From: Bispira polyomma
Taxonomy: Eukaryota
Direction: 5' to 3'
Assembly: GCA_965649765.1 (NCBI GenBank)
Contig: OZ287757.1
Location: 27,280,001 to 27,344,000 of the forward strand
DNA length: 64,000 bases
Notes under the pieces: model-generated
Databases searched by the model: none
Seen by the model: the letters and a program-made list of their open reading frames with translations, nothing else
Told to the model about the DNA's origin: nothing
Shown: piece after piece, positions 213-53,034 of the stretch
How the letters are laid out: each line of letters begins with the position of its first letter
Position numbering within the stretch: position 1 is the stretch's first letter
Made by a program: the position numbers and the translations under genes

Positions 213-3200
213 ATGAAAATTGAAGGTATTTATTTAGTTGCAAAATCCAATATGTAGTTCTATCCACACTTGTGAGAAATTGGTGATTTTGAAACAGGAG
301 CTTCTAGGTTACCATGGCCCCTACACCACTTGATAGTTTATTTGTATCATTACAGGACCAGTTAACTGTCACTTAGGTTACTTTCGGTATGATCTGTTTA
401 CTTTTATTGAAGAAGTACCTTGTCAAATAAAGTGCTGTTTTATAATTTAATCAAAATCATAGAATATTACAATTTCTCATGGGGCCAGTTACAACAGAGA
501 AGTGCAGTTATGTTTTATACTTCATCATGGCAACGTTCTTGTGTTCAGAGCTATCAAACTCAACCAACATCCTTATTTGTCCTCAATCATCAAATCTAGT
601 AGCGTTACCTGGGGAAATCACCTCTTTGTTTCTTCAATCTCACCAAACAGGAAAATCAGCAGGTGCTCCTGTGGCTCCTGTTGAATGGAACAAACTTCCA
701 CACACTGTTAGATCACAGGATAAAATCAATGGTTTCTGGAGCCATCTGAAACCTTAACTTTTCAGACTGGCCTACCTCCTTCCTAAGTCCCCCTTCCCTT
801 GGTGGATGCTTTCTGGTAACGACCTTTTGTTTGTCTCTAAACCTTCTATTTTTGGATATCAGCGACATAAAGGATGTTCTCATCAATTTGGCGCTCTATA
901 AATGTTTCAATTATTAATATTATTATTAATAATAAAATAAAACCAACCACAATCTTAAGTTAGAAAGTAAAGTTTGAATGGTAACTACAAAATGTTTTGA
1001 TGAATGAAAATCTAAGAGCTTAATTGAAATGATACTACCTATTAGATGGATTATCATCCAAATAATAATTGTTGATCTTATAATAGAGAAAATCAAAATA
1101 CTTCGAATATCTTAATATAAAGATAATGCATGCCGCTAAACCACATTGAACTATAGAACTTGCATACCAGAAGATCTGTTAGCAACTATCAATTTTGTAC
1201 CTAAAGCTAAGGGGTAAGTAAACTCAAAAAATAACTTTATTGATAATAATAATAATAATGTAAATAAGGCAGCACGTACATAATATTTATATTTTAAAAA
1301 ATAAATAAATAAAATTGTAAATAAAATGACACAGAGCACTAAGTGGCTAATATTTTGAAAAATATAAAAATAAAATGGTATGTAATGTTATAAATTATAG
1401 TAGATCTGCTCATTAAAATGAACTCTGTATTTAAAGTTTTGTAATTCTTATTGGTAAAGGTGGAATTTGAATTTATATTGGGATATTTAACGTCCACTCT
1501 AGTACCTGTTTAGGTTATATTGGGACGGGTAGTTGGAAATGCTGGAGGAAACACTGCATACAGTTGATCAAGGTTCTGCCCTGAAACCAGCGGCCCAAGT
1601 AAGGAACTACCACCTTTCCCACAAAGGTATCAGCGGGAGTCGAACTCACACCACCCAGAGGTGAGAGACCAGTGATTGTGAAGTCCAATGCTTGCTAACC
1701 ACTAGGCCACCGCGGCCCCTGGTAAAGGTGGAAAGTCAAGTAGTAAGGTCAAAGTGGTAAGTTGGTATAATTTATTGAAGACAGTGAAACCAAAGTTTGA
1801 GGTATTTATTTTTTCCTGTACATATTAGTTTATATATTTATTTACAAGTAGGGTTAAAAGTAAGTAAAGAGTTTTAAAATACACCATAATTTAAAAAGCA
1901 CCCATTACACAGGATACATAAAACAAAAAACATAAGACTAACCAACTAGCCATGTAAACCAAAGCAAACTCCAACTAACTGAAATATTCAGACACATAAC
2001 CAATCTGAATTAATAATCAAAGAAAATAGTCCTCTATGACCATCTCTTAACACAACTAAGCATTCACAACTCAAAGACAATTGCGTCCCTAAAATCACAA
2101 TTTACATATTATATATTTGATGCACTATTTGCATTATATGTTTTTAAAAATTTTCAGAAAAAATTGGTCATGTCTTTTAAGTCCTTCACATTCTTCAGAT
2201 AATCACAAAATATATCAACGTAATATTCACCTTACACATTCCTGATCCATAAGTTGAAGTTTTGAAATATAAATACTTAAGTTTATGAATATATGTACCA
2301 TCCATTGTTATCAAATCTCCACTCTATAAGTGACCATAGCAAAGATTTGTTTATTTAAAAAATCTACCATTTCTAATGAAACCACTACTATAGTGGGGAA
2401 ACCGGGTCCTACGGCACCTAATCGCCTAGCAGTGAAGGTTCCCGGCTGCAGTATTGAATTCCCTAGTAGCCCACACCAGGGGGTAGTTACGGCGGGGGAC
2501 CAGGAACAAACGGATCCAGGTTCAAACCTGTTAGTAGTGACACTCGAGCTATCTAGTTAAGTATCTCCTCAATTGGGGGATAGACAGATTGAATAATACT
2601 ACGAATCTGCCACCAGGGATTAAGGTAGGTATAACTTTACCTTTGAACTGAACTAGCTGTGCATTGTGACAATTTCTCTATTTGAGTTACGGTAAACTGG
2701 AAAAGAGATTTTGTAAAATATTATATCTAATGCTATTCTATTATGAACATTTAAATTGTATATTTCTACAAACCATAGAATGATGTAATTGAGGATTCAA
2801 CATATTTGTCACAAATAGCGTTCTTCCACTGAGCAGATTCTCCAAGTTGAAAACAACTTACATTGAGAATAACTTAAGGAAAGCATTTATAAAATTATAT
2901 AATGTAAGACTATAAAAATAAAATAAATAACTTAGGAAATAGTTATTTAATTTTATTTAAATTCATGCAACAATTAAAACCAAAGAAAAAAATAGTCATG
3001 TGCTATTAATGTAGCACACAAAAAAATCGATTAAAATAGAAATAGAAAAAATTTACTTTATACCAACTTTCTTGAGTGGGGTTATATAAACGAACACTCT
3101 AACCAAGGATATCATACATCGTATACTACCAGAAGGAATCAAACATGTCTGCAACATTAAAAAGAAAGTTATTGTAAGTTTAAAAGAAAAAGCTTTTACA

Positions 3201-6200
3201 CAGTAGAAAAAAAACAGGATGTAATCTTTGCTCTAACATAATTCTAAAATGGGAGAAGAACCTTCAAAACAGAACTGACACACACGTTATACAGATTCCT
3301 TTGTTACAGAACAAAATATTATGTCCCGTTAGGGCCTTACAGGAACTTATTTTGGCAGGACCACTTCCTCCTGCTGCACCACTTTTTGCAGCCTGTGTAC
3401 CACCATTCCATCCAATAGTTGACACACATGTAAGGTTTTCACTCCAGAAAGTTCTTACACACTTAGGTATACCATACAGGTCACACGGCTTTCACACCTT
3501 TAGAAGGTCGGGGGCCTCCTTTGCATTCAACAAGAACGTGTCTTTGCAAAACATTATGTCTCATGGGCTTTGGAGGTCCTTGGCCGTGTGGGCTTATTTA
3601 CAGAAAACCTCACAGGCTGCTTCAATTGTCCCTCTTACTTTTGCCTCTGCCATTCCCCCTTCTTAGTTGGGCTTGGGGCTTAAAATTTTATGTTATAAAA
3701 ATTTTAACTTTATTTTACCTCTCAACATGTATATAAATACTAACTTGTAGATAATAAAATCTCAAATGAAATCTTTTATTGCTTTCAACAATTTCACCTA
3801 AACTTACAAATTAACTTACCACCAGTGGACTGTGCATAGCAAGTCACCTTTAGGCAACTGCTAGTTCAGTCCACCCTCTCTCTTATTATTATACTCTACC
3901 TTAAGACCCCCTAGCGAATGCTACAGTATTATCCACTTTTCTTTCTATCCATAGCTACTAGTGAATCACAGCACAGATCACCTGTGACCCCTAGCTTTAC
4001 TAGCTATCCTCCATATTGTATTTATTATTTCACTTGTGAACAGGACATTGTGGAAAAATTCAACTCTCCAACTCCCCTTCACCACAGCATTTATTATTTA
4101 TTTGAACTTAAGGTTTCTGCTTAGACTCAAGGCTGTTATTTAACGGGGTGAGAGAGTGGGTATGAGTTCTGGATTCCGAGCCGTGTGTTGGGAGGTCCCG
4201 GCTTCTTATTCCCTCCCCTGGGCAAACCACTGGGGTGCCAGGGTAGAATAAGGGGCTCTGAGAGCCCGGACCTGTCCCTCTGCTAGGCGATTAGGTGTCC
4301 AAGGCCCGGGGTCCTGTCCTCTAACCTGCTGTGTATCTGTTTGTGAACTTACATTTGTAGCTTTGAGGCATGACTGTAAAAATTTTCAGTTTAGGTCAGG
4401 TTGACTTGATTGGACAGGGTGACATAAGACTCACTTAGACACTAGTTGTGGACAACATACATAGGTTTACACTGGAAATTATCCCTGGTGGAATTTTCCA
4501 AATGACTGATATGACCTAATCTTAAAGTTCTAAATCACAGGGGTGTGAACCCAACATATTAGGTGTTTACATCTCAGGTGCGAGATGGATAATTCATGGC
4601 ACAAGATTGTCGTGCTTGCACGAAGGGAGTGTGTAGTAGAATAAAATCACAATATAGCATGTGTGGCTAAGCTTCTGTTAAGATATACCACTGCACGTAT
4701 GCATTACTTTTACATGTTTCTAGAATGTATTGTGTTCATAATAGTTTAGTTTATTAATGTAACGGTTAGAATTTTGGAACTTGTATATGGGAAAGTTAAA
4801 TACTGTATTGGTTCACAATTTGTGACAAGATCTGTTGTTTTATCATTTGCCAACTATGCTGCCTCATAGTATTATAGGTTATATTGTTCCTGTTGAGGGA
4901 ATTGTTATCTTCTAACATAAAGTTTGGTATGATCAAGGGGTCTGTAGTCTTTAAATTTGTTTGTTCACGACTAGTCCTATTTTGTTGGTACTCCTCTTGT
5001 CAGTGTTAGCCTGTGTGAGGCTTAAAATTTTATGTTATAAAAATTTTAACTTTATTTTACCTCTCAACATCTATATAAATACTAACTTGTAGATAATAAA
5101 ATCTTAAATGAAATATTTTATTGCCTTCAACAATTTCACCTAAACTTACAAATTAACTTACCACCAGTGGACTGACGCACAATGTACACACACAAAGGAA
5201 CGCTAACAACAAAAACAAAAATAGAAAATCAAAAGTGAAAACAATTGCTTATATATTTGAAGGTCCCTCAATAATATGCAATAAAATGTGTAAATTAAGT
5301 GCAATGTGCTAATAAGATTATACCAAAATGGTGTTTGTAAAATAACTGTTTAAAATAATATAGAGTCGTGAGCAAAAATAGGAGACTTTTTACCTCTTTT
5401 TGTAATTAACTAGCGAATGAGTTTGGTTTATTCTTTTCATCATAAACTCGGTTCATGTGTTGTAGACGCATAGGCTAGCAAATTAAGTTTGTGGCCTCAG
5501 TGGGTCGCCCTATTCTGATCTTGTTCGATTTTGGACTGACATTTCTATAACAATTTTTGTTGACCAAGACCTCAGATGTATTAAATATAGCACTTTGATT
5601 ATTGGAACTCTTTATTGTATACATAATAGACTGGTACCACAAGTAGTCACTTAAAAGTCACATGATGCCCTTTGTAAAAAGCCTTATTAGCATATTATTT
5701 CTTTGTAGAGCAAGAAGAACATTATGATTACAGAAATGAGGTAATGGTTAAACAGTTATTATATATTGTGTAATACTTTTATAGTGTAAATTCAACAAAA
5801 CATATACTGTGATTGAGATCACAACTGAAAATACTTTTTATTATCTTAATTACTTCTCATTTCAATATTTATCAAACTTCCCTAATGTTCTGTGTCATAC
5901 ATTTGCGAAAACTTTGGTACAATAATTTCATCTTTATTTTATTTTAGGCTTTATTGGAATTTAAAATATCTCCTGCAGGAGCAACTTACCACTTTCCAGA
6001 AGAAAATGTTACTGTGGTTATTTCACCAAACAGTTTATGCCATTCTGGAATTCCGTGTACAGCATCCATAACACCAATTCAAAAAGAAAAGCACATGTCT
6101 GGTGTAATGAGTAAAATCTATCAGTTCAATCCATGTGGATTAATCACACAAAACATGCTGATGTTTGTTCTTCCTCTCCTCCCAGCCCACAATTACAATT

Positions 6201-9200
6201 ACAGCAATATGACTCTCATGTACCGTGGTGAAGGGGACATTGAATTCGTCTGTGCTAAAACCATGAAGGAATATAAACCAAGATGGGTATTTCATGGTAA
6301 TGCTTGCTATTTATTTCTCAACCATTTTTGCGAAATGTATATAAGTGAGGAGGAAAATGATTCTGGAAAAAGAACAACAACGATAACCTTGCAGATTTTG
6401 TTGTTTTATAAGTACAGTGATGAAGAGTTAGAACTTAAAACTACATTTGGATGCTACAATGAAGATTCAACCTGTTCTTCTACAAATGTCACAAAGGTAA
6501 GTTTAAAATGCAGTCAAAGTTTTATTTAAATCATCTAGATATTTGAAGTAGTTTAATTGTTAGCTCTAGTGGGAACTGTGCTACTGAATTTGCTGTCTCG
6601 ATAAGTTGGCAATAGATTAACAAAATGTCTGTGACAAGGAAGAAATCTTGTGATACTAATGTTAAACTTCTATCACGCTAAAATTTATATCATGTTTTGC
6701 ATAACACCAACCCTCAATAGTACACATCCAATTAAAACCACATTTGGATGCTTCTATACTAAATCAACATGTTCTTCTACAAGAGTCAATTTATTTCAAT
6801 GATGTATACATTATAATTTATTTATTTAAAACATTTCGGTGATTTTAAGAATTTGTAAAAAAATAAAATGAGTATTTGTAGTATTTTAATGACTAGTCCT
6901 ATTGGGAAATTGGCTCAATTGGCCCTCTCGAATAGATTAACTAAAATGTTGGTGGTTTCCAAGGGAGAAATCTTGACCCAATAACTTGCTATTCCAGTTG
7001 TCATAATCCCCATATACATTTACTTATGACTTTATAAATCTCCACATGTAATTTAACTTTTTGCAGCATTACACAGCAGCAGGTTATAGCATTGGAGGTG
7101 AACGACAGGCTATTATCTTTAGAGGATCCACCTTAACTGTTGAACCACAGTTTTGTCAAAATGACTGGGAGCTAAGTCACTCTGGTGATGTAATAGAGGT
7201 GAGAAAGTTAAAAAAAATCTATAATGATATCAAAATAAAGTTTTGTATCCAGTGCAATGTATATGGAGATTACAGTCACCTTATTTTAGTTTTCCTGCAT
7301 AGACATTAGGTCTGTGCAACTTGCAAATGCTTAACTAAAGTTTATTGTTTTGCAATATGGTAGTTCAGAGTAAAAGCATTGGATAATTATTAGTAGGGTA
7401 TTGGAATTATCTATTATTATTAGTAGAACACAATAAATTGTTAGAAAACTGGGGCACATTTTTGCAATTTTGTTTTAATTACACTGCATTGTAGTCCCAT
7501 GTGGCAATGGCACCACAGAGCAAACCATAGATAGATACCCATTTGCCAGTGAACAAGTAGTTTATTAGTATTGCAATTTCAGGAGATACGTGGCACTACT
7601 TTGGTAGACATGTGTAAATTTTGCCGCATTACAGCAAATGCATGGCCAATAGCCATTTCACATACACTGCTGAAGCGTGTGGCCATGTCAAAACGAAAAA
7701 AAGATGTAGTAATAAAAATAACCCATGAGGGCCAGACAATTGTTTTAGAGTGTAAGGTGGTAAGTAATGCAATGACTTGAATATATTCAGTATGTATTTC
7801 AGAAAAAATCTGTATTTATGTGACCAGTATCTAGTATATTTATCATTTAGCTTGTGATAAGAACTCCCCCGAAAACTATGTTTAAAACTTAAGAATAAAT
7901 AATCCGCTGCCAAACAATATCTATTCTACACATATTGAGCTGCTTTTTGTACAGTTACATAACTGTCATGCCCTTTTTCGGCATTAAGTTCTTGAAGTGA
8001 ATTTTTTTTAAGTGAATTTTTTAAAACTTTGGTATTTTTGGTGAAACAATATCTACTATACACATATTTTACCGAAATGCCTGTCTCTGACTGAAGTTAT
8101 CTGATGTACATGTCTTAATTATTGATGTGGTTTTTAACAGATTACATTATTATTATGATTCCACTTTTAACACGCTTTATTGATGCTAGGCATATGCTAA
8201 AGCACAAACAGAATCAGTAATCCAATTGTAAAGTATACGGGTGTAGCAAAGTTGTAGAAAAAGATGTGGAAGCATACAGGAGGGAACTAAGGTGGGTAGC
8301 CAAGGTAAAAATATAGGTTTAGAGCTTTTTCCTAAAACCATCTACTGATCTGAGGGGACTGGGAGACTGTTCCATAACAATGAAGCTGCAATGGAAAAAG
8401 CTCTGGATCCCTCCCTCCTGATGGGTGTAACCGAAGTAACAAAGAGTCTGTTGCCTCCCTTTAGGTTACTGAAAGAGAAAAGAGGAGCAAGGTATGATGT
8501 TGTTGTTGTTGGGTGACTACAGCCTTAAAAATGGTAACATGAATTTTAAACAAAATTTGAGAGTGAATGGGCAGACAGTGTGGGTTTTTTGGTAAGTAGC
8601 GACGTCTGTGTGACCACCCAGGCAAAATATCACCTGTATAGGTAGTTTTTAATGGAATTGAGATTATTAATCTGTGACTTGTTTACTCCAAACAAAAGAA
8701 AGTTGCAGTAGTCGAGGGCATTAGCCACAGCTATAACAGTGTTCAGTGACAGGTGATTTTGGATTCTTTTGATGTCACCTATGTGATATTAGCTGAAGTG
8801 ACAGATGTTGGCAATATGAGTGTCAAGCAAAAAGGCCGAGTCAAAAGTTACACCCAGGTTTTTGGCATTTTCGGAAGGCATTATATCTTTTCTCCGAAGG
8901 GAAATAGGGAACCTTGATTTGAGGAATGCACTATATTTCTATATGTCTCCAATGAGAATGAATTCAGTTTTGTCGTTGTTTAATTTCAATTTGGAGTAGA
9001 ATTTATCCACGCCTGGACAGAGGACAGACAGTCTGCAAATAAATTAATATTTTGTTTGTGTTTTGAGGGTTGAGAGAGATAGACTTGTGGTGTCATGAGC
9101 ACACATGTGGTGTTTTATATTATCATTATTGATAAGAGGATGTGTAAAAAGGGTTAAACATAGATGCCCAAGGACAGATCTCTGGGGTACTCTGTATCGT

Positions 9201-12200
9201 AGGTTAATGGAAGATGAAAAGTGATCATCTAGTTTAAATTCTTTGTTCTCTAAGAGTAAGGTAGTATCTGAACCAATCAAGGAGACAAAGCTGAGATTTG
9301 ACACTGGTCTGAAGTTTTTTAGCTGGTTCTTATTAAGCCCTGTTTTTTTAGCATGGGAGTAACATTTGCATTTTTGAAACAGGTAGGGGAAAATATCATC
9401 CTGAGGAGAAAAATTTAATATGTTGATTGTGGGTGTGACTAGGATGTCGAGGCATTGATTTAGAATAACGGCTGGGATTAGATCAGGTTCACAAGATTTA
9501 ATAGGAGAGGATTCAAGGAGTTTTAGAATATCCTGCTTGGAAAGTCTGCGGAAATGGAACAGGCTATAAATCTTATACTCTGGAATTGGAGGGCAGAATG
9601 AGACATCATTAAAAAGCCGTAACGAATGTTGCTGATTTTATCAATAAAAAATTTGCTAAATTTATCCATGTAAAAATGTTAGACAATGGTTTATCGGGAG
9701 AACTTTCTTAGATATTCTATGGAGAATTTTATTTTTCTTTACGACCTTGCTATGCCCATGGAATTTACGATTAGATAACTAATTCTGCAGTTGTGCTTTT
9801 GAAGAGCATCAATAAAGCGCGTTAAAAAAGCACAATAATAATAATAATGAACAGTTTTAGATGTGCTTCTACAAGTAATTCTTGATTAAGTCCATATTTC
9901 AGAGTGCATCATTTAATACTCAAGCCTAAATCAATGGTGCCATGATATAAAACTGGCTCAACTGTTTTTAGCCCAAGTCAGACTTGAAATATATACATGT
10001 GGCTTTAAGTTATTCAAGTTTAGAGTGAGTTGTCTAGCCTACAAAACTCAGTTTCAGTCATTTCTTATATATGAAAGGCAATCAATAACTGTAAATAGTT
10101 AAGCTAGACTGATATCAACTATAATTTTTAAAAATACTATTCACTTGTAACAAGTCGATACATATCAGATAATATGTGATGTACTTGTACTTATAATTCT
10201 TTTAATGTTTGGTATTGTTACTTTATATGGAGCACTAAAATGACATATCCTTTTCTTACCTTCTAAAATATTCGGTTAGACATATTAATGTGTACTCAAT
10301 ATTCACACATATTATCCTTGCTTTATTACTTTTTCATTGTCACTTCATTGAAATATATGTACAATGATTTTCTGCTTCATAATAAAAATTTTCAATATGT
10401 TTGCATGAGTACTATGTTTCATGTCTCCTGTTTTTTTGTTTTAGTCAAAATTACCTCAACAGAATAGCAACAGTCAAAATGCATTTCGACAACTAATTGG
10501 CATGGAGAATGAAACCATTGAAGATGAAATTAGAGATATATTTTACATGCACATGTCAAATACCAAAATAAATGAATGTGAACCCATAATGAAAATAGAT
10601 CTCCAACCTAAGATGGATCCTAGAGGGTTCACGAAACTATTTTTTGAAATATTTATGAAAAGTTACCATGGCACACCGGATAAATTAGAGATTTTACATT
10701 CATTAATGATATATCTAAGACAGTTTCCATGTCTGCAAGACATTGAACGAGAATTAAAATGTTTAGAATGTGTAAAGAAAATCGAGAAGCAATTCCTGTA
10801 CCTTTTGAGGGAAGGATTACTGGACAGCTTTCCACAATTTTTAGAAAGCAGAGGCTTCCTTAGTAGTAAAGAATGTACCAAGTTGCTAACATATCCAGAT
10901 ACTGCCAGCAAGGTTATGTATGTGATGGAAAATATCATATTACATAACTCCAACAACTACAAGATACTTATGAAGTATTGCACAAACCAACCCAAATTGA
11001 AGAAATTTCTCCCAGAAGGTACACAGTCCATGGATGAAAATGAAATGACTGATTCTGTGAGTATATGTTCCTAGTGTACTGCTTTTATCTTATTTCCAAT
11101 ACATCTATTATTCTCTATAGAGAGCATAACAAAGGTTGATATATTATAACAAACAAATAAAGTTCCTTCGCATTAGTGCAAAGCTCGAGCATATTTCAAA
11201 GTGAACCTAGTGTGAGCTAAATATAAAGCTATAACAATTTTTAATAAGTAAAATATTGAAAAGAATCATCATTTCATATACATTGACACAAAAATAATGT
11301 TGTACTGAATATGTGAATATGCAAGTTTTTATTTTTGTAGATCAGACCAAATGACTTGCCGAAGTTGTGCAACGATTGTCTCCTGACTGTTGCTAATGAA
11401 ACCCTTGGCCTACAAAGCACAATTGATGTTTTGGCCGAAGTGGGTAATAGTTTTTGCTCCCGCTTAAATTATGACATAATTTGTGATAATGCATGGCAGG
11501 GAATTAACAGTGCAAGGAATGACGATGAGGCATTGGGATTGGTGCGTAAGGTAGTTATTTGCACATTATTATTTAACCAGTTTAAAAAAGTGGGTAAAGA
11601 TTTTGTATAACTATCTGTATTTCCTTTGACATGATCTGCGTATGGAAAATGCTTTATAACAAAATTAACAAACTTGACACTTATTCATCCATATAATTCA
11701 AAAAGTGTGGTATGAAACTATCTTATAGTCTCAAAAGTAATAGATACCTTGGCACTATATGATACTTAGTATTTATATAGATGGGCTTTATTGTCCAGCA
11801 TTATATCAAGTTTAAGTATTTTGTATCTATAAATCTTTGCTTTCAAGCAACCAGTTTAGGGGTACTTTAAGGTGTTCTCTGTAAAGGTCAGTTTCTACAT
11901 TTGTATTCAAGCTAAAATCTAAATGGTTATTGTACATATATCTTTATGTTTGGTAAAAGGATAAAACAATGATGACTCTATCTTAAGGTGACACCATAAA
12001 CTCCACTCTTAACCTACAAGGGATTTGTACCCTTGCAACACATAATTGTGCACCTCTCCTCTCGGAATCATGTTTAAGTGACAAAATCACTATTGATGGA
12101 TGTTTAATTATTCCATATTGATTAAATTTTGGATATGTTTTGAGTTTAAGCATATTAATGTTATTATAAACATTTTCTATTGTCGATATATTTTCTTTTA

Positions 12201-19799: not shown

Positions 19800-21670
19800 C
19801 TTGAGAACATAACTATATGAATTCTCAAATACCAATTTCTTCATAGCTCAATGTCGATTGCTGGAAACACTTCATACATGATTATTGGGACAAGCAAATT
19901 GTTGACTTGCTTACATATGGCTTTCCTCTCGATGTTCATACCTCTTGTCAGCTGCATAGTATGGAAGAAAATCATAAATCTGCTAATGAATTTAGCTCCC
20001 ATGTGGATGCATATATGACTAGGGTTTATGACTACGGACAAAGTAAATTTCACTACTCGTCGTACGATAGTGGTATGATAGTGGACCTAAGTTGATCACG
20101 GGGCTTCTCGGTCAACAATTACCCAACTGTAAAAAATTGTTGCTAATGTTAAAAGCTTTAGGCCCTGGGGCCCTACTATAAAATTGATATCAGTAGGATC
20201 TCTAGGTATGTTCTCATTGACCCTGGGGACCTACATTTACTGGTTCTAAAACACAATGATACATATCTTCTAGACCGTCATCTTCACAAATCAATGATGT
20301 GATGTCCTCATGGGGACACAAACCTTCATGTATTAAAAGACAGTATCAGTCACTACTTGGTTCTCTGTCACCAAGTGTGTCCAGCCTGCAAGGTATTTCT
20401 TGAATCAAATGTTAAGTTTACTTAGGGACAACCATAGTAAAACTTCTATATGTCTTACTCCTGAATTTTTGAAATATTTGAATTGGTTCAATACTTTTCT
20501 TTCATCATATAATGGGGTTAGATTCTATGATAACAAATATGTCAGTGCCACATTGGAGTTAGATGCCTATACAAAGGCGTTTTCGGGGATATGACACAAT
20601 TCACCTAGAAATCCTTAATATTGTGGTGGCCCTTAATGAGCTCACTTGGCTGACAAACGTATACTCATAAAATGTGATAACAAAGCGGTAGTTGAGGCCC
20701 ACAATTCTGGTAAGGCCAGGGATGCTATGTTGGCTACATGCACAAAAAATATTTGGTTATTCTCAGGCATGTTCAATGTAGAACTGGTTTTAAACCATGT
20801 ATATGAAAATTTTACCAAGTGGCTGATCTGTTGTCCAGATTGACTTTTTACAAGCAACCTTCGGAAAACTTGAAAGTGCATAAACCACAGCCTGAATAAG
20901 TATAACATATAGTACTATGTATATATTTTGTATTCCGGTTGATCTGTGTGGGGCAGCCCAGTTGGCATCCTGTGCCACCACCAGACTGCTGTCTGCCTTT
21001 AGACCAACGACGAGGTAGGCTTACTCCAGAATGCTCAAATAATTTCTGGCTTTTCTGGTGGCAGCTGGGCTGCAGCTATGCAGGTCTCTGTATTAGTATT
21101 GCTTTCATTTATGGAGTATCTAGTTGTAAATGGTAAAAATGTCAATAATATTGCCAATTTTGTTTTTTCTTCCAAGAGCTTCCTATATAATACATGTACT
21201 TTCTACACAGGTTTTTCAGGACCTTAGAATGCAGCATTTTATGACATCACTACGATAAACAGATTGTTTTGTCTTAGAAATGTATTTGATGAAATAGTGT
21301 TACTACAGAAAGTTCATGCTGCTTCATTTAGTGCATTCTTTTGATGTGTCCAGATAGCTGGCTCGGCAGGGGGGGATATTATATTTGTACCCCCAGGGAC
21401 CACTGTCTTGGTTAAATAGTCTAAGACCATTTAAACCCGGGGTGACTTAAAACCCATTGCGTTTCCTGCTCTGGCAGACTCACCTCTCTGTCCAGTACGG
21501 GCACTAAAATGTATATTGGGCCTTGCTTTATTTCAACCTAATGATCCCTTGTTTCGAGTTTGTAGAGCAAAGTTTTCTACTGATTCTACGGCAAGAAAAC
21601 ACCTTAAGAAAGTGCTACACTTTATCGGAGCCACCAATTTGAAATATACATTTCACAGTTTTTAAGTCAT
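19800..21670 (+). mobile_element. Heavily decayed DIRS/Ngaro-like retrotransposon (RT-RNaseH-YR fragments)
   Basis: DYWDKQIVDLLTYGFPLD..EENHKSA, MIVDLS, IDPGDL, CDNKAVV..SGKARD, AFRPTT, LCPVRAL and YTFHSF, with many stops and deletions. Confidence 0.85.
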
Positions 21671-36984: not shown

Positions 36985-39900
36985 GATATCATTTTGCAAC
37001 TTAAGGGTTGATCCTGTAAAGTTTGGTTTATTCTTGGACAATAAGTTCTACCAGGAATTGGCTCTAGGCCCCACCAACCCCAGGAGAAGAAAGCTTAAAA
37101 ACACATGAATTGAGCTTGCTATTTTTATTATACGTAAAATTGAGGTTATTGCTACTACTACAATATATTTACACATCCATTAAGTATACATGTTAAGTTT
37201 GTTATACACATTGAATTAGTACATTATGTATACTGATAAACCTTTAATTAGTACATTATTGATTCTGGCAACCTTAACTCAACACTTAGTCTTTCAAGTT
37301 AAGGTTGGTTTGACAGTAAACTATGATCACCTTAACATCACTTTAAGGGGATCTTAATGTTCCCTTGATTTAAGACATAATGATACAATTCACTTTAAGG
37401 TAACATTAACATGTGTATAATTTGGAAATATTAAGTAATAAGTAAAATTCATGAACAGTAATAGCATAACATAACAGTAAAATTTCCCTCAAGCCCAACA
37501 GTAGTGTAGTGCTGCATTTATGTAGTTATTTATCTAATATGGATTGAAACGAACGAGCTACTTGCTCCCCCAAGTTGTGGTCTGCGTGGATGTACCTCCA
37601 CACACAATTCGACGTCCAGGTGCCATGATGTTCGATCTGTTGTATTACTTTATTTGCATTATAAGCAAATGTAGCACCTGAACGTCGGAAGGTGTGGAAC
37701 GTAAAGTAATGCGGGTCCAGACCCAATTGTACATTGAGTCTAGACAAAGTTTTCCTGATACGGGTATCCGTAAGCACTTGCCAACCTGCAGCAGTTCTGC
37801 ACTGGAATAAGGGCTCATGTTGCTGAGGGTTATACAACTGAAACACGTCACGCAAGGCTCTGTATGGACAGAGGTGTGATTCATCTAGCTTGGGGAGACT
37901 AATGACATTGATATTGTTTATGTCTTGCATTGTCTTAGTCCATTAGACCTTGACCAGAGACTTGGTGAAGAAGACATCGCCCCCTGCCAAGTGTCCAGTG
38001 CTGTCAGGTATGCAAAGAATGTGGGGCAAGATTTGAGGCTCTAAAAAAAAAAAAAAATGCTGTTAGAAACACAGCCTTGAAAACCTTGTCATGATGCATT
38101 TTTTCACATAATAATATCAAGCTTTTTAGTGTTACCACATCCATGATGTTTCTACGCGTTATTGATATGGGTCTATTAATTCTAACTGCTTTTACAAAGT
38201 ACTTGATTTTGGGTTGCTCAAGGCACTGATAGGGGAGATCATAAATGATGCATTTTGCCTTTATGGCTGATATATAATTGCTAATCATGTTGACTGAGAC
38301 TCCACTTACCACCAAACATTCCATAAAGGCCAACACTACCTCAGTATTGATATCTGCTAATTTAACTTTGGCATGTAAACAAAATGACACAAAGTTCCTG
38401 AATAACATGCTGTAACATCTTTGGGTCTTTGGTCGAAATGGCTGTTGCCATCTAGCACTTGCCTAACCCAACAGCCTTGCCACCACACTGTGACCTACAA
38501 CAAAGTATAGTATCATTAGTTATCAGTATGTGCTGTAGATTATAAGTCATTATCTAATTCTAACATTTCAATACACACAGGAAGCCATACTGGCTGTTGC
38601 ACATACAATAATAATTCACTGTTATTTTCCACTGTATTCTGCCATCTAGACAGGAGATCGGCAGTTCTATTCAGTTTGCCCAGGACATGGATGTACTGCA
38701 GATCTACATCTGTCAGTGCAGCCAGATACCACATATTCCTGGCACAGGCCTCCAAGAAAGGGTACCTGGCCCGACCTGACTGCAGCACTTTCACTACAGC
38801 ATCATTGTCACATTTAATTAGCACTCGTCTACCACTCCAATGTTTGTAAACAAAAGGGACTGCAACTGCCTAATAGTACAAGTTTTTTGGTTATGCCATT
38901 CCTTGACAACTTCATTAATTTTGTGCAACTTATCTTGGAGAATCGAGACAGTTCCAGTTTCTGTATTAATGAGGACTCCCAAACACACAGCCTGCGTGCT
39001 AGGGGGTATCAATTTCTTTGCACTAATCGTGAGACCCAAATTTTCCAACAATTGGTATAGGCATTCACAGGACTTCTTTGCTACAGGGGGCCTGCCGTAC
39101 TCAATATAATCGTCAATGTCGTCCACGAAACTGTAACCACAGCAACGCATGACATAACGAACACCATCACTTAATCGCTGAAAAATTTGACTTCCGTGTC
39201 TACTCCCAAAGGGAAGACAAGTGTCAACATATGTGCCTTTCCATGACAAGCCCAGTAAGTCGTAGTCACATGGGTCGATCTTTACATGGCGAAATGCCCT
39301 ACTGACATCTATTTTTTAAACATGCGAGCCACGGCCTAATTTTCTAAGCTCATCTGTGATGTGATCTACTGTGGGAAAAGTCAAGCAAAAGTCAGTGCCT
39401 AGATAAGTACCCTGGCTTGTCTCTAGTCATGAAGGGGGAGTAATGCCCCCCCCCCCTCCTCCTTTATTGGATGTTTGTCAAAAAGGCCTATAATTGCCCT
39501 ATGTTTTATTTCTTCATTCAAATAGGCTTCTATGTCTTCAGGGATATTAACAGCTGACTTGTGGTTTTCCTCCTCCCACACCAAATCAGTGTCCAATGGA
39601 AAACCATATTCAATGAACTCTAGTATTTCCTGGTCCCAGTAGTATTTTAATATCAGTTTCCAATGGTCTACCTTTAATTGGGAGTTGACAGGTATTCGTG
39701 CCTGTTGGAATTTGAATTTGCCAGTTTTGGTGACCTCAAAGTGTGCCTTAATCGGGTCAGTCATTACTGGGGCCTGAGTTTGAACAATGCCATGGTGAAG
39801 TGGGTCTGATAATAGAACAAAGCCATAATTAAAGTCAGTTTGTTCTTGCCACCGTATGTGTGCTAATACCCTGTCCACCGAACCTGTCACATCTCTATGT

Positions 39901-42425
39901 TTGTATAATATTGAATGGACAAATTTATCACCCTCACCATTTTTTTTATGTCAAACAACTGGGTTTGTTTCCCCTTAGCCTTTTGTTTCAATTCACTGCA
40001 TGTGGTACTACTACTAACTTCATTTGCAGATGTATTGTTACTGGCTAATTGAATTCCATCCCCACAATGTCCAATCAAGTCTTGACACTTCTTTTGTTCC
40101 CCACCCGTGACTCCCCCACAACAAGGGAGGGTGTTATGCCCCTACTTGTTATGGTTGGGTCACACTTCACGGTTTGTGTACACATTTTCATTGTCTGCTT
40201 TACATTGTTGACAATTTGGGGACACTTGCTTTGTTTAAACACTCTCTCAGTGACACGTCTGGTTTTGTTGTTTGTACTAGCTCCCTGAGCATTAACCCAA
40301 ATTTCTTTCATATCAATTCTAGAGGGGCAGTGCACTTACCTAATCCAATTTTCCTTTCTACCTGCTAACAAAGCCTCAATGTTTTTTCTGGCAGTTTTTG
40401 AATTATAAAAACTTCTGGTTCTATAACACTCGTGTACATGAGCCTGATTTTTAACATTGGACCTGTCACCGAGAACCGTGTTTTTAAAACTCTTTGCTAT
40501 TCTACCTTTTGTAAAACACATATTACCAACAGAGTGATTAAACCTCTGAACACATTTTCTATCAACAACATTACATAACACTTGGTTAATCTTGTCTGGA
40601 GTATATACCTCTGGTTCCTTATACACAATGCTGCCCACTTTTCTTACTAAAGGTGAGCAGCTGGCTGCTCGTTTTTTGAATGAAAATTTTTCTTCCCAAA
40701 CATACAGTCCTTTTCCGGGTGACCACTCACCCTTCCCCTCTCCAGACAAGAAGAACATATTTGTTTGTGAATTTTGCCACCGTTCTCGTGGTCCTTACTC
40801 TGGCTACAAGCCCCAGTTTGATACGCTTTACAATACCAATGTTTAACACCCCGATTAACATCTGAATTTTTTCCCCAGTTATTTTTACTTGGTACTACAT
40901 GCTTTTGTGCATGAGCAGCACGTCGAATCCTATCTATTCTATGACTTTCTTCCCATTTCAGAGCACTCCTTTCCATCTCACAAAGCAGCACAGCATGTGC
41001 TACTTTAGCTGTCTGCCATGTGGCATCCTCCATCAAATCTGACATGTATAGTAACATTTTCTCTTTAATATCGGAGTCTTGCTCCTCAACAATATTCTTG
41101 GTAAAACCCTGACTCACTGAGTGAGTGACAACTGATCATAGGAAATGCGTTGCCTAGTAGTGCCACCTAATATTGTTTCTTGGGGCCAGGAGACTTTGCT
41201 TTTAACTATTACCTCAATATTACCCCCCTTTTTGATTTAATTTTGTTTGCCCCAACATTACCTTTCTGGCTCGTGAACTCAGCCTCTAAAGCACGAACAC
41301 GAGCATCCACCTGCTTTTGCAGCTCATTTGAACTTCTCAACACAGATAATTTGGGGACAATTTCCTCCTCAGAGGAAGACTCTGAAGAATCTACTACTTT
41401 GTCAACAGTACATTTTTTACTTTTACTGGTTTTGTTATTTAAGTAGGCACTACTTAACTTAGGATTGTTCTGTGAGGACGATTCTGCTGCTCCTGTTGAT
41501 TGACCAATTGCCACCTTGTCCTCCACCAGGTCCTGCCGTTCATTCACCTTCCGCAGCTGTTTCAGGATCAGGCATTGCACATCTTCTTCATCAGATGAAG
41601 ATCCAGATTCCATTGCTGTTGACATCCGGGTGTCTTTGCTCTTCTTGCTCTCCGCCCTTGTGCTCCTCGTAGGGGACTTTTCCTTCTGTGGTTTCAAGAC
41701 ACCAGCAGTGCAGTTCCTTCCCGTAGGGGGGTAGTCCTCAAAAAAACACAATTCAATTATTCACATCTGACTTGTTCATTAAGTCAGTTCAAACTGAGAA
41801 AGTATGGGGGGTTTCTTGTAAACAAGCTAGGCTTAGCCAATGACATACGTTGTGTATCTTATTGCCGAGGTACTAGATAGGGATTCCAGCTGACATCACA
41901 AATAAGCAATTAGCCTGGTATCCTACTAATTTTTAATGGCGTTAAAGCCTGACCCCTGTGATGCCTTGACACCACAGGCGAATAGCAGATCACCTTAAAA
42001 CCTTACGATTTTTACGTTTATTTCTGCATCTTTCCCAAATCTGAAGCCAGCTTGGGTTTTCAGACTATTCATAACCATCTCAATTACCTTGTTCCCCCTA
42101 TAAACAGGGATAATCTCAGTCCTTCCAGTTCCTTTGTAACTAGCTTAGGCATTGACTTGAACTTAACCATAGGTAGGATAAGAATTACTACAGATACGAT
42201 AAACCAGATTCATTTATTCAAGTTGCATTCAACTTGCATCCAACTTCCAAAACTATTCTTGGTCGTCCGCTTTTTATTCACAAATGTGAACGACCTGCAT
42301 CGGCATTGTTTTATTAATAGGTTGTTAGCAATCTCTTTTAGATCATCCTAGGACCAAGTGTTTACTTAAGGCATGAGACAAAATTTTGGTGCTATATGAT
42401 GCAAAGAAGTATTCGCTACTCCAAT
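36985..42425 (-). mobile_element. Near full-length DIRS/Ngaro-like YR retrotransposon (gag about 41750-40647, RT/RNaseH about 39890-38540, YR about 38494-37526), pseudogenised
   Basis: Gag with WQTAKVAHA..IDRIRR and a C/H finger; YGFPLD, LPFGSRHGS, IDDYI, CDN; YR HTFRRSGA..HGTWTSNCVWRY. Boundaries come from the empty paralogous site at about 23100-23120. Confidence 0.92.
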
Positions 42426-48305: not shown

Positions 48306-50349
48306 ATTAGTAGTCTTTCTGGTATTTCTTACTAAATTATGGGAGAAATCGTCCAGAGGTAGCTGTAAAATCACCCAGGGATCTGGAAGGTGTAAAATCA
48401 CCCAGGAACCTGAGAACTGACTCCGCGATACAAGATGAGGTGGACAGACGGCTCAGGCATTACCAAGATATGTCCAAGCTCAAGTCTGGTCCCTATAGGC
48501 TGGGAGATCAACGGGTTAAGGTGTCGGTCGCTTGGCCACATGAACATTGCATGTTGTTAGATAATCTTAAGATGCCTACATACGAGGAACTCTCGATATA
48601 TCAATGGGTGCAAGGGTTTTCTAGGTGTGTAATTCAAGAACCAGACGAGTCGGTAAGGATGAACATGCTAAGATACCAATACAATTTAATGCAGGACGCA
48701 GTCGACCTCTCATGGGCTACTGCTAAGCGAGCCCATGCTTCTATCCTATCAGAAATCAAGAGGGGTATGGTAACCTGGGAGGATCAAAACGAGATAGATC
48801 GCATCAGGCAAAGGTTTACTCAGAGAACTCTCAAGGCTACAGGGGGAAACGCTGCACAGGGAAGTAGGAACTATTTCAACAAAAAGGAACAGTCTGGTAA
48901 GGTAAATGTGTGCTCAAAATTTGCCAAAGACGCTTGTAAGTTTGAAATTGATCATTATGAAGGTGGCCGTTTACAGAAACATTCCTGTGGATATTGCTTT
49001 AAGGTGGTTCATAAGAACTATGAGCATTCAGAAGCAAAATGCAATAGGAAAATGAAGGAACCCATGCAGTCCACAGAGACTGATCAGAAGGTGTAATGTA
49101 GGTGCTGGCTCCTCCCCATACGTGCAACTGATATCCCACGCTGATAAACACAAATTTAATTCCATAAATTATTGTGACACAAAACGCCTCTGGCATAGTC
49201 GTTTTTGGTACAACCGACATTTAGGCCAATGTACATTTCAATGGTGTAGCAGGGACCCGATTAACCGGCCTGCAGGCGAGTGCTTAAGTATGGGGAAAAA
49301 CAGCTTTAAGGAAGCTCACAGTGGGCGACAAGTAATAAGGGCAGTGGAAGTTGACCCACTGCATAAGGTTTTAGGCGACGACAGCGTCTCTAGTATTAAA
49401 AACAGTCTTTTAAGTAGTACAGATTTAAGTAATAGGACCAGCAGTACGTGTAGTGGTGAAATATGATTTTCCTGTAATACTTCATATGTGACAACATGGA
49501 CCGATGAGGTCGTTCAACAAAGCTTAATAATTGTTGACATAAGTACTAGCAAAGTTAGCACAGAAAGTACTCTTTATAGTGAAACGCTTTCTTACATATA
49601 CAATCAGTCGGGTTATGACTTCCAGGTATAGTAGTGATGACACATGCCAACACGATTTTAACATTACCACAGACATATTACAAAGCCAATTTGGCCTGGG
49701 TGTTAAATATATTAGAAGTCCTGTAGGGGCTAGAGTTACACAACTCACTAGGGCGTCCCCCATTATGGGTGAATGTGTAGACGACAGCCTAAGGAAAACA
49801 ATAGTAGAATGGACTAGGGGGTTTATACCTAGGTGTCCCACACATTATGTGACAACAAAAAAAGAACTTCCAATTGAATTGTACTGATATGGTTGATTGG
49901 GTAACACAGACCCAAGCTTTGTGTAGGGGAAAGCAGTGTCCTATTTATGGGGGGAGGCGCGAATACCCGTCCCCTCTCAACTTAACATCAGGGCATGGAG
50001 GACCTATTTACAAGGTTATGATTTTAGTATAGTCTGCGAATACCTGGAGTTCGGCTTCCCATTGTCACTAGATTATGGCCAATTTCAATATAATACCTCA
50101 GTAGAAAACCATGCCTCTGCTAATAATTACCCTGAAGACGTGCAGAAATATTTTGACACTGAAATTCAACACAATGCTGTGTTAGGGCCTTTAGCTAAAC
50201 CACCTTTTGAAAAATTGCACATGTCACCCCTCATGTCGCGTTCTAAACCGAATGGTAGTAGGAGAATAATAGTGGACCTCTCATGGCCAAAAGGTAATAG
50301 TGTTAACAGCTATATTCCCAAAAATTAGTTTGATAATATTGAATTTCAA

Positions 50350-51441
50350 TTGACATATCCCACCATAGACGACATAATTGAAAAAATAGCCTTTTTTGGC
50401 CCAGAAACCCTTTTGTTTAAAATTGATTTAAAAAGAGCATACAGAAACCTCAGGAGTGACCCTTTCGACTATTCAGTGCTTGGTTTAAACTGGAACAGTC
50501 AGTACTATGTTGATTTGTCAGTCCCCTTCGGCCTGGCCTCGGGCGCCAGTGCCTGCCAGATGACCACGGACTGTGTGACCTATCTGATGTGGGGTCAAGG
50601 TCATTGGGTTTGCGTCTATTTAGATGACTGCATCGGGGTTGCGCCTCCTAGCAAGGCTAGGGGAGGTTTTCAAACTTTAAAAAATCTGATTCTCCAGTTG
50701 GGGCTTCCAATCAATCACGACAAGGTTGAGGAGCCTGCCCAAAGTATAGTGTGTTTAGGTATTAATATAAACGCCCATACCGGCGTCTTGACCATTCCCA
50801 CTTCAAAATTACTTGAAGTCAAGCAATTGTGTAATAACTGGCAGAATAAAACAAGGGCCACCCGTCGCGAGTTACAAAAGTTATTAGGCAAATTGATTTA
50901 TATACATCGTTGTGTCAAGCCAGCCAGGCTTTTTGTTAATCGGATTCTGGGCATTTTGAGGGGGGCACCCCCACACATGTCAGTCGCTTTGACAAAGGCC
51001 TTTCATAAAGATGTTAATTGGTTCTGTACTTTTTTAGAACAATATAATGGAATAACAGCCATTCACTTGAACAATGCTGCCAGGGAAAATGTATTTGTAG
51101 ACACGTCCTTACAAAGCCTGGGGGCTTATTATGACGGCCAAGTATATAGCATTGATATACCCAGTGAGTATAAGAATTCCCTTAACATTGTGCACTTCGA
51201 GATGTGTAATATAATAGTGACCTTTAGGTTGTGGGGCGAGGAATGGCAGAACAAAAGAATTCGCATACATTGTGATAATTTAGCGGTGGTACATGTTTTG
51301 AACAAACACAAAGGTAAAGATACATTCCTGAATGCCTGCGCTCGCACACTTTGGCTTCTGCAAGCTACTTATAATATTGATATTACAGTAGAACACGTCA
51401 GGGGGGTGGATAATATATATGCGGATATTTTGTACCAATAA
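50350..51441 (+). pseudogene. DIRS-type reverse transcriptase/RNase H ORF (same frame as 49936-50328)
   Basis: YLDD RT motif and RNase H D..E..D residues. Only a single stop separates it from the upstream part. Confidence 0.9.
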
Positions 51442-53034
51442 AGCTGAAGTCGCCCACCTTAAGCAATGCCAGTGGCATAATGTAGAAACACAATGGCTGT
51501 CCCCTAATTACAATATTTATATGTTGCAGGTAATCGACTAGCCAGATCACTACTGAAAGATGTCCAAGCGCGCATTGACACAGGCTTCCAGCCAAGGACT
51601 TCTGCTGCTTATAATGCAAAATTTAGGCTTTATACAGCCTTTCTCTCACATTTGAGTATTTCCAACCCTCAGAGCTTACAGTCTGTGTTATTGTTCCTGG
51701 AATTCCTGGCACAGCAAGGCCTGAGATCTCAGACACTACAAGGGTATTTAACAGTAATTAAATATTTCTTCCAGCTGTATGGATTCCCACTGCACGTACT
51801 CACTCATAAAAAAGTTCAGCTTATAGTCAAGTCCGTTGCCCATAATGCACCCTTGAGATACAGAATAAAAAGGGTTTTGTCTACCAATAAGTTAACTAAA
51901 CTAGTGGCACTTTTGGTGGGTTTCCTTGGGGCTGAGGTATACAAAGCCATTATCCTGTTGGGCTTTTCGGGTTTTATCGGTTGGCCACCCTGGTCCCCAG
52001 TACAGTACTTGACTTCCAACCTTCCAGATTCCCCACCCCTCAGGATGTCATCTGGGGTTCCCCCGGGGCACACATCGTAACAAAGTGTGCCAAAAACATG
52101 CAGGTTTCAGGGCAAGCTCAAGTGGTACAAGTTTCCCTTCTTCCCGGGTCCCCTCTGTGCCCAGTGTTGGCACTAAAAGGTATACTTCCCCACAAGTCTA
52201 TCTGTAACAAAACACCTCTGTTCAAGTATTTACATCAACATCAAACGGTAGTCGTAACCGCATCCCAGGTAAGAAAGGTATGGGCAAAGGCCATATCCCG
52301 CCTCGACCTCAGGCCCTCAGAATATGGGTTCCATTCACTAAGGCGTTCTGCCGCCTCATGGGCGTTCGACCACAGGGTGGATCTCCAACATATTAAAGTC
52401 CATGGGGGTTGGCGCTCTGACGCCATTTGGAGCTGCCTGGTTAAGACATCACATACAGCTGGTTTAGTAGCTAATGCATTTCACACATCCTTAACACCTA
52501 CAACAACATAGACACTACTGTTGGGTTTGGCAGTTTTATTTATACATTACATACAAGTATAGTTAGTGTACATAGTAGTAGTAGTTTAGACAGTAGAACA
52601 CCTCCTTAAGTTTAGGTTACCTTAACAAAACTTAAACTCACATTAAGGCTACCTTAACATGAACGACATGCAAGCGGTGCTGTGACCTTAAGTCAGCCTT
52701 AAGTAACACATGCTTTGACACTAACGTAAGTTAATGGACACTGACTTTAGTTAATTGACAGGCACCACATGTCAGGTGCATAAGGAGTTAAGTTTAAGTT
52801 GGGGGGGGGACTTAAACAAGGGGGGCATAGTAATTTTTAGTAGAAATAACGTATGTGTATTAATAAAAACCCAAATGAGTGTGAAACTTGTGTTATTTCT
52901 GTGTTGTGCAACCTTCACCATCACTGCCATAATTTATGGCTAGGTCAAATCTCAACATTGACCACCTCAGGGGGTGAGACTGGTATTTATTTGGCTCAAA
53001 TTTAGGGGTGGTAAATTTCAGATAGAGGAGTGAA

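Follow-up and report, generated by a model that had tools for sequence, protein, structure and literature searches.

The window analysed here, a stretch of 64,000 nucleotides from Bispira polyomma (C10:27280001-27344000), contains three retroelements, plus one fragment, of the kind that encodes a reverse transcriptase (RT), an RNase H and a tyrosine recombinase (YR). The family is abundant, a first look having returned 7,768 YR candidates in the 1.04-Gb genome. In these elements and their relatives we find that gag contains a conserved splice donor and that a matching acceptor lies immediately ahead of the YR frame. On the strength of these sequence comparisons, the recombinase is very probably produced from a spliced mRNA that fuses the N-terminal part of Gag (Gag-N) to YR.

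Ngaro-type retroelements of the window

The copies carry three open reading frames (ORFs) on a single strand, namely gag (about 380 residues), pol (about 890) and YR (about 325), in the order gag-like, RT/RNase H, tyrosine recombinase (PF00078, PF13456, PF00589). The first is called gag from its position and has no Pfam match. Split direct repeats of the form A1...B1-A2-B2 are present in 12 of 99 loci (L031-L130); the full B1-A2-B2 end is rare, and most loci, including the minus-strand copy of the window, are without A2 and B2 in the fetched stretch. In 39 of 40 families pol ends 28-36 residues past the last RNase H motif (the remaining copy continues into YR), thus leaving no space for a methyltransferase, and the Pfam scan of the element proteins contained no methyltransferase family. 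Gene order, A1-ORFs-B1-A2-B2 repeats and the missing methyltransferase are shared with Ngaro-like retrotransposons (order DIRS) in the published passages on that group. DIRS1-like elements, as portrayed in the excerpts of PMC3266345 and PMC7192593, resemble ours in combining RT/RNase H with a tyrosine recombinase but have inverted terminal repeats, an internal complementary region and a methyltransferase, whereas the terminal repeats here are direct. By the definitions in the corresponding passages of PMC13465315 and PMC9210276 the elements are Ngaro-type, not DIRS1-like, and the DIRS-like label given in the initial annotation has been dropped. The YR tree was built from unnamed copies only, with named Ngaro references outside it; Atlas matches were to unnamed clusters only, YR had no sequence match in the PDB, and no ORF for a hydrolase was noticed downstream of YR among the ORFs listed.

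The minus-strand element begins with the 5' split direct repeat A1 (41733..41982), which is 96% identical to A1 and to A2 of copy L041. The Gag N-terminal part (41262..41760, from the ORF at 41209-41760 and family comparison) has a Cys/His motif, a coiled coil and a helix, and constitutes the predicted exon 1; gag of this copy has a deletion near 41735. It ends in a phase-1 splice donor, AAG/GTAATG (41256..41264), with the last exon base at 41262. The donor AAAG/GTAATG at 41262/41261 had been proposed in the initial annotation, and we find it in the gag frame and in phase 1 as claimed. The predicted intron (38495..41261; 2,767 nt) comprises the C-terminal half of gag, RT and RNase H. Within it lie an A AAA AAC slippery site at the gag end (40671..40677), predicted to direct a -1 gag-pol frameshift, and pol (38540..40794, PF00078), which is broken in this copy and whose stop (38542-38540) is upstream of the open YR frame. 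A branch-point-like CTAAT (38514..38519) overlaps an in-frame ATG (38516-38514) and is followed by the phase-1 acceptor TTGTAG (38495..38500); its AG at 38496-38495 is in the YR frame with one TAG (38465-38463) intervening, in agreement with the earlier reading. The tyrosine recombinase (37526..38494; SAM-like and catalytic domains, PF13102 and PF00589) is the predicted exon 2, also broken here, and repeat comparison places the 3' repeat B1 at 37066..37520, with A2 and B2 missing.

On the plus strand, a second element starts with a 5'-truncated gag (48408..49096) that is 94% identical to L111/L112. Its donor has been removed by a 30-nt deletion near 48475, whereas sister copies retain it. RT and RNase H follow at 49927..51441 (PF00078), and then a tract (51504..51529) with a branch-like CTAAT that includes a stop in the YR frame (51505-51507), a T-rich run and the acceptor AG at 51528-51529, just where CCCTAAT..TTGCAG/ had been noted. 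The recombinase, recognized by profile match, occupies 51530..52511. An in-frame ATG is lacking both ahead of its acceptor and within its N-terminal domain, and in sister copies the first YR methionine is residue 98. The third element, also on the plus strand, is decayed, with profile matches to the recombinase at 20939..21662. Between 20917 and 20938 it has an in-frame ATG (20917-20919) and, at the acceptor position, GG in place of AG (CCGG/, 20937-20938). The suspicion that this GG is a mutated AG is borne out by its relatives: 14 loci were fetched and eight anchored, of which six read TAG at that place, one has the TAG displaced by a downstream indel, and the last is a 99% duplicate that also reads GG. 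This duplicate (of window 20650-21250) lies about 85 kb away, at C10:27385754, and the window repeats D8, D14, D18 and D20 suggest local segmental duplication. The initial annotation had described the YR frame of all three elements as devoid of an initiating ATG; this stands for the plus-strand element only, given the ATGs of the decayed element and of the minus-strand element, whose family has an in-frame ATG in all 15 acceptor-bearing copies.

Splice signals in gag and before the recombinase

Acceptor conservation was assessed using the YR motif F-R-P-x-T as an anchor, which is independent of the splice signal, with families clustered at 85%. Of 99 loci, 91 have a phase-1 AG at a single fixed offset before YR, as do 33 of 36 families; the eight loci missing it comprise three small-indel shifts, three deletions and two point changes. 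A wider set adds 39 more distant genomic and three metagenome loci and permits a one-codon shift. There, at a between-family median identity of 45%, the AG is present in 134 of 141 loci and, although its A occupies a third codon position, in 57 of 58 families, with two picks at -58 and that of L165 probably representing chance AGs next to deletions. Two rows were excluded here (L045, without an N-terminal match; L138, of a distant type). In the 58-family profile, aligned on the AG where found, T occurs at -6 and -5 in 56 families, and third-position information downstream of the acceptor averages 0.20 bit, reflecting codon periodicity. AG dinucleotides are depleted at -20..-3, where 3 of 986 positions carry one; the stretches on either side have 99 in 2,030 (upstream) and 198 in 2,262 (downstream). 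A YTRAY branch-like motif is found between -40 and -15 in 31 of the 58 families versus 13 of 58 in the control window. In L059, L061, L062, L056 and their relatives another in-phase AG lies 21 nt ahead of the acceptor, and the exact acceptor could vary in such families. In one clade this second AG precedes a strongly conserved GATACTATRC-type motif, the frame of which differs between families.

For the donor, the Gag helix served as the first anchor and an in-frame A-GGT-A was sought in the linker behind it. There, 69 of the 71 loci have a phase-1 AG/GTA, as do 27 of the 28 families, compared with 3 of 2,938 control codons. Sites that had been read in the few copies of the window are conserved on both sides of the predicted intron across families. 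Of 80 loci reached with a second anchor, 77 have G/GTR, as do 36 of the 38 families, compared with 52 of 507 control windows; the nearest-site rule mis-picked L101, L102, L152 and L168. Loss of A at -2 in spliceosomal 5' sites is typically compensated by a stronger intron side. Here, families without this A show the full GTAAG in five of seven such picks (the other two being mis-picks), as opposed to none of 29; the five form one clade and hence count as one event.

Could these conserved letters serve another purpose, merely resembling splice sites? They might answer to a protein constraint on glycine, or act as a DNA or RNA signal in reverse transcription, packaging or recombination. Two observations would agree with such a role: no junction was seen, and in one clade the conservation of the GATACTATRC-type motif ahead of the AG exceeds what a pyrimidine tract requires. 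We consider it hardly probable, given that the donor glycine codon is always GGT while the other glycine codons of gag are evenly used (32/31/29/18), and that A is the last letter of the codon before it and the first letter of the codon after it across many amino acids, the residues flanking the donor varying widely. The association of -2A loss with GTAAG likewise speaks against it, and the exclusion of AG, the T-T-N-Y-A-G shape and the matched phase fit the spliceosome.

Of the features of a spliceosomal GT-AG intron, a conserved 5' site, a 3' YAG preceded by a T tract and a zone depleted in AG, and a matched phase are found, around a predicted intron with a median length of 3,088 nt in 74 copies. 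Relatives further afield exhibit the same pattern. Three metagenome contigs, all from one data set and with a YR identity of 36-39%, keep the acceptor, the two of them that include gag keep the donor, and one has a gap of 309 nt between pol and YR. In proteins from other assemblies the implied codon pattern is matched by 53 of the 56 YR N-termini long enough to include the site and by 46 of 50 Gag linkers. Moreover, 22 of 88 open YR copies (13 of 40 families) have no usable start, with no upstream in-frame ATG and no methionine in the first 40 residues, and the SAM-like domain begins at residue 14. The spliced RNA postulated in the initial annotation, fusing Gag-N to the recombinase, is thus supported by the nucleotide conservation of donor and acceptor, the constant phase 1/phase 1, the AG-free zone and the startless YR frames.

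Other routes to the recombinase and the search for the junction

A different solution has been put forward for Ngaro elements in a 2015 review, which, as quoted in PMC13003380, holds programmed ribosomal frameshifting to be probable for YR. The passages of PMC9210276, PMC3783388, PMC13465315 and PMC8547959 speak of overlapping or frameshifted ORFs, and splicing is not described in them. Under this proposal, Pol and YR would be fused by a programmed -1 frameshift or by stop read-through at the RNase H end. The frame of YR relative to pol varies: among 40 families with an identifiable pol end, pol and YR overlap in -1 in 12, in +1 in eight and not at all in 19, with one single-copy read-through, though the copies are decayed and some overlap calls may reflect copy-specific indels. 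The 12 overlaps in -1 are what the proposal predicts, and in nine families YR lies in frame behind the pol stop; the 19 families without overlap, the eight in +1 and the gaps of 239-309 nt in some families are not accommodated. A slippery heptamer occurs in only one of 13 pol-YR overlaps in -1. In the minus-element clade, by comparison, 15 of 16 families (window 40671-40677 and L031-L152) have A AAA AAC where gag meets pol, mostly followed by a predicted GCTG...CAGC stem-loop, and together they are likely, from the sequence, to be a -1 gag-pol frameshift signal; a frameshift signal is therefore visible where it is used. Two single copies, L136 and L137, do read from pol into YR, a sense codon replacing the pol stop that their sisters retain and giving a single RNase H-YR frame. 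Their long YR frames were considered as intron-less copies and rejected, being single-copy read-throughs. All in all, we regard a Pol-YR fusion as very improbable. In the more distant Ngaro-type contigs L134 (1058-1101) and L135 (3741-3784) the RNase H and YR frames overlap, and a clear donor was not found; in a hydrolase-bearing contig of this type the RNase H stop TAG itself provides a phase-1 AG for the YR frame.

Several results weigh against a spliced Gag-N/YR mRNA. The families are related to each other, their counts being non-independent events, and the gag anchor is missing in 61 of 141 loci. Five gapped motif searches for an intron-less genomic copy gave no match in four cases and one unrelated match in the fifth; of 71 unspliced loci, 31 are matched by the halves of the first pattern and 10 by those of the second. 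Neither did Gag matches with long frames, in 30 loci (L228 being excluded as lying on the wrong strand) and then in 20 of the other 120 matches, include an intron-less copy, and a Gag-N match adjoining a YR match was absent from 252 sequences. No fused Gag-N/YR protein appeared among 150 Gag-N representatives, 120 YR homologues and 819 longer candidates, yet these database entries resemble gene calls on genomic DNA, and the negative is therefore weak. To these must be added that, in the minus-element clade, an ATG within 12 codons of the AG is in the YR frame in 20 of 28 families, compared with six and none in the other two frames. The junction was also absent from the best 15 joints of each of two alignments (113 and 31 further joints lay outside), the three runs listed being of unrecorded kind and resembling whole-genome contigs, and 106 pattern matches among viral contigs contained no relative.

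The retained ATG suggests that an unfused recombinase may also be made in this clade. In such a dual route the splice would be real, and the minus-element clade would additionally, or mainly, produce free YR from the ATG in the tract, through re-initiation behind the pol stop or by way of an internal promoter. In favor of this route, the ATG stands at distances of 5, 6, 7 or 8 codons, and about 30-70 nt separate the pol stop from the AG downstream of it in most families with such an ATG. Outside the clade the ATG is not enriched (7, 7 and 4 of 28 families per frame), and open copies within it lack the ATG (L090, L073, L152, L048). Synonymous variation is scarce in the codons of the tract, the frame of the motif shifts between families, and the gag donor would be left without explanation. 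We consider the dual route rather unlikely, though it is compatible with splicing. An in-frame ATG or an open overlap before YR had been named in the initial annotation as evidence that would count against splicing. The latter holds up in splicing's favor insofar as 19 of 40 families have no pol-YR overlap, whereas the former goes the other way for the minus-element clade, in 20 of its 28 families.

Elsewhere in the window, a lone 3' fragment of another YR family followed by a terminal repeat region occupies 3184-3666 on the plus strand. Long open frames at 5948-6529 and 10445-11074, also on the plus strand, resemble host-gene exons and have no Pfam match at E 0.05. The loci L043, L064, L103, L114, L120 and L130 are located in tandem-repeat arrays, sometimes with an identical repeat on both flanks, surroundings that suggest a target preference.

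A predicted Gag-recombinase fusion among known systems

In the model that we favor, splicing of gag to YR, the full-length RNA would encode Gag and, in the minus-element clade, also Gag-Pol by way of a -1 frameshift at A AAA AAC, and would serve as template for copying. A fraction of this genomic RNA would be spliced across about 3 kb, with removal of the C-terminal part of gag, RT and RNase H. The splice would join 162-193 Gag residues to about 325 YR residues, giving a protein of about 490-520 residues that starts from the gag ATG. One might speculate that Gag-N, with its Cys/His motif and two predicted helices, brings the recombinase to the particle or the cDNA, and that splicing is kept partial by the weakness of the donor on its intron side. 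The structure model of Gag-N is of low confidence (pLDDT 61, pTM 0.20), with helices at 62-99 and 151-172, and has no fold match in the PDB.

The production of a further protein by partial splicing of a transcript that is also the genome is the strategy of retroviral env, while retroviral integrase derives from the unspliced Gag-Pol polyprotein. In its use of a partly spliced genomic transcript to yield another protein, the arrangement proposed here parallels both retroviral env and the spliced CERV mRNA of Cer1, as presented in PMC10309623, with the difference that the predicted spliced product is the integration enzyme carrying about half of Gag. Ty1/copia elements likewise have a conserved alternative splice that sets the ratio of retrotransposon proteins (PMC5580714), but theirs gives Gag alone with early termination, whereas ours would skip pol and add a catalytic domain. 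Ngaro-like elements differ in that published passages attribute YR to overlap or frameshift, and here it is predicted to be spliced onto Gag-N. No description of a Gag-N/YR splice was found in the literature searched; the 2004/2005/2015 papers of Goodwin, Poulter and Butler, and Repbase reports, were outside its scope and may mention one.

In this context, we lean slightly towards a broader proposition, in which Gag-N splicing would be a general and ancient route to the integration enzyme in this whole branch of Ngaro elements. The chimera would be loaded into particles or targeted by its Gag half, and annotations of a free or frameshifted ORF3 in these elements would be wrong. The matter bears on the expression, in YR retrotransposons, of a recombinase encoded behind pol and often devoid of a start, for which ribosomal frameshifting is the proposal in print for Ngaro. 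A conserved splice provides exact, testable junctions and redefines the enzyme as a Gag-N fusion, with relevance to packaging and target choice. It implies a retrotransposon that must balance spliced against unspliced RNA in order to integrate and, since the family is so abundant, its splice sites may also affect host genes.

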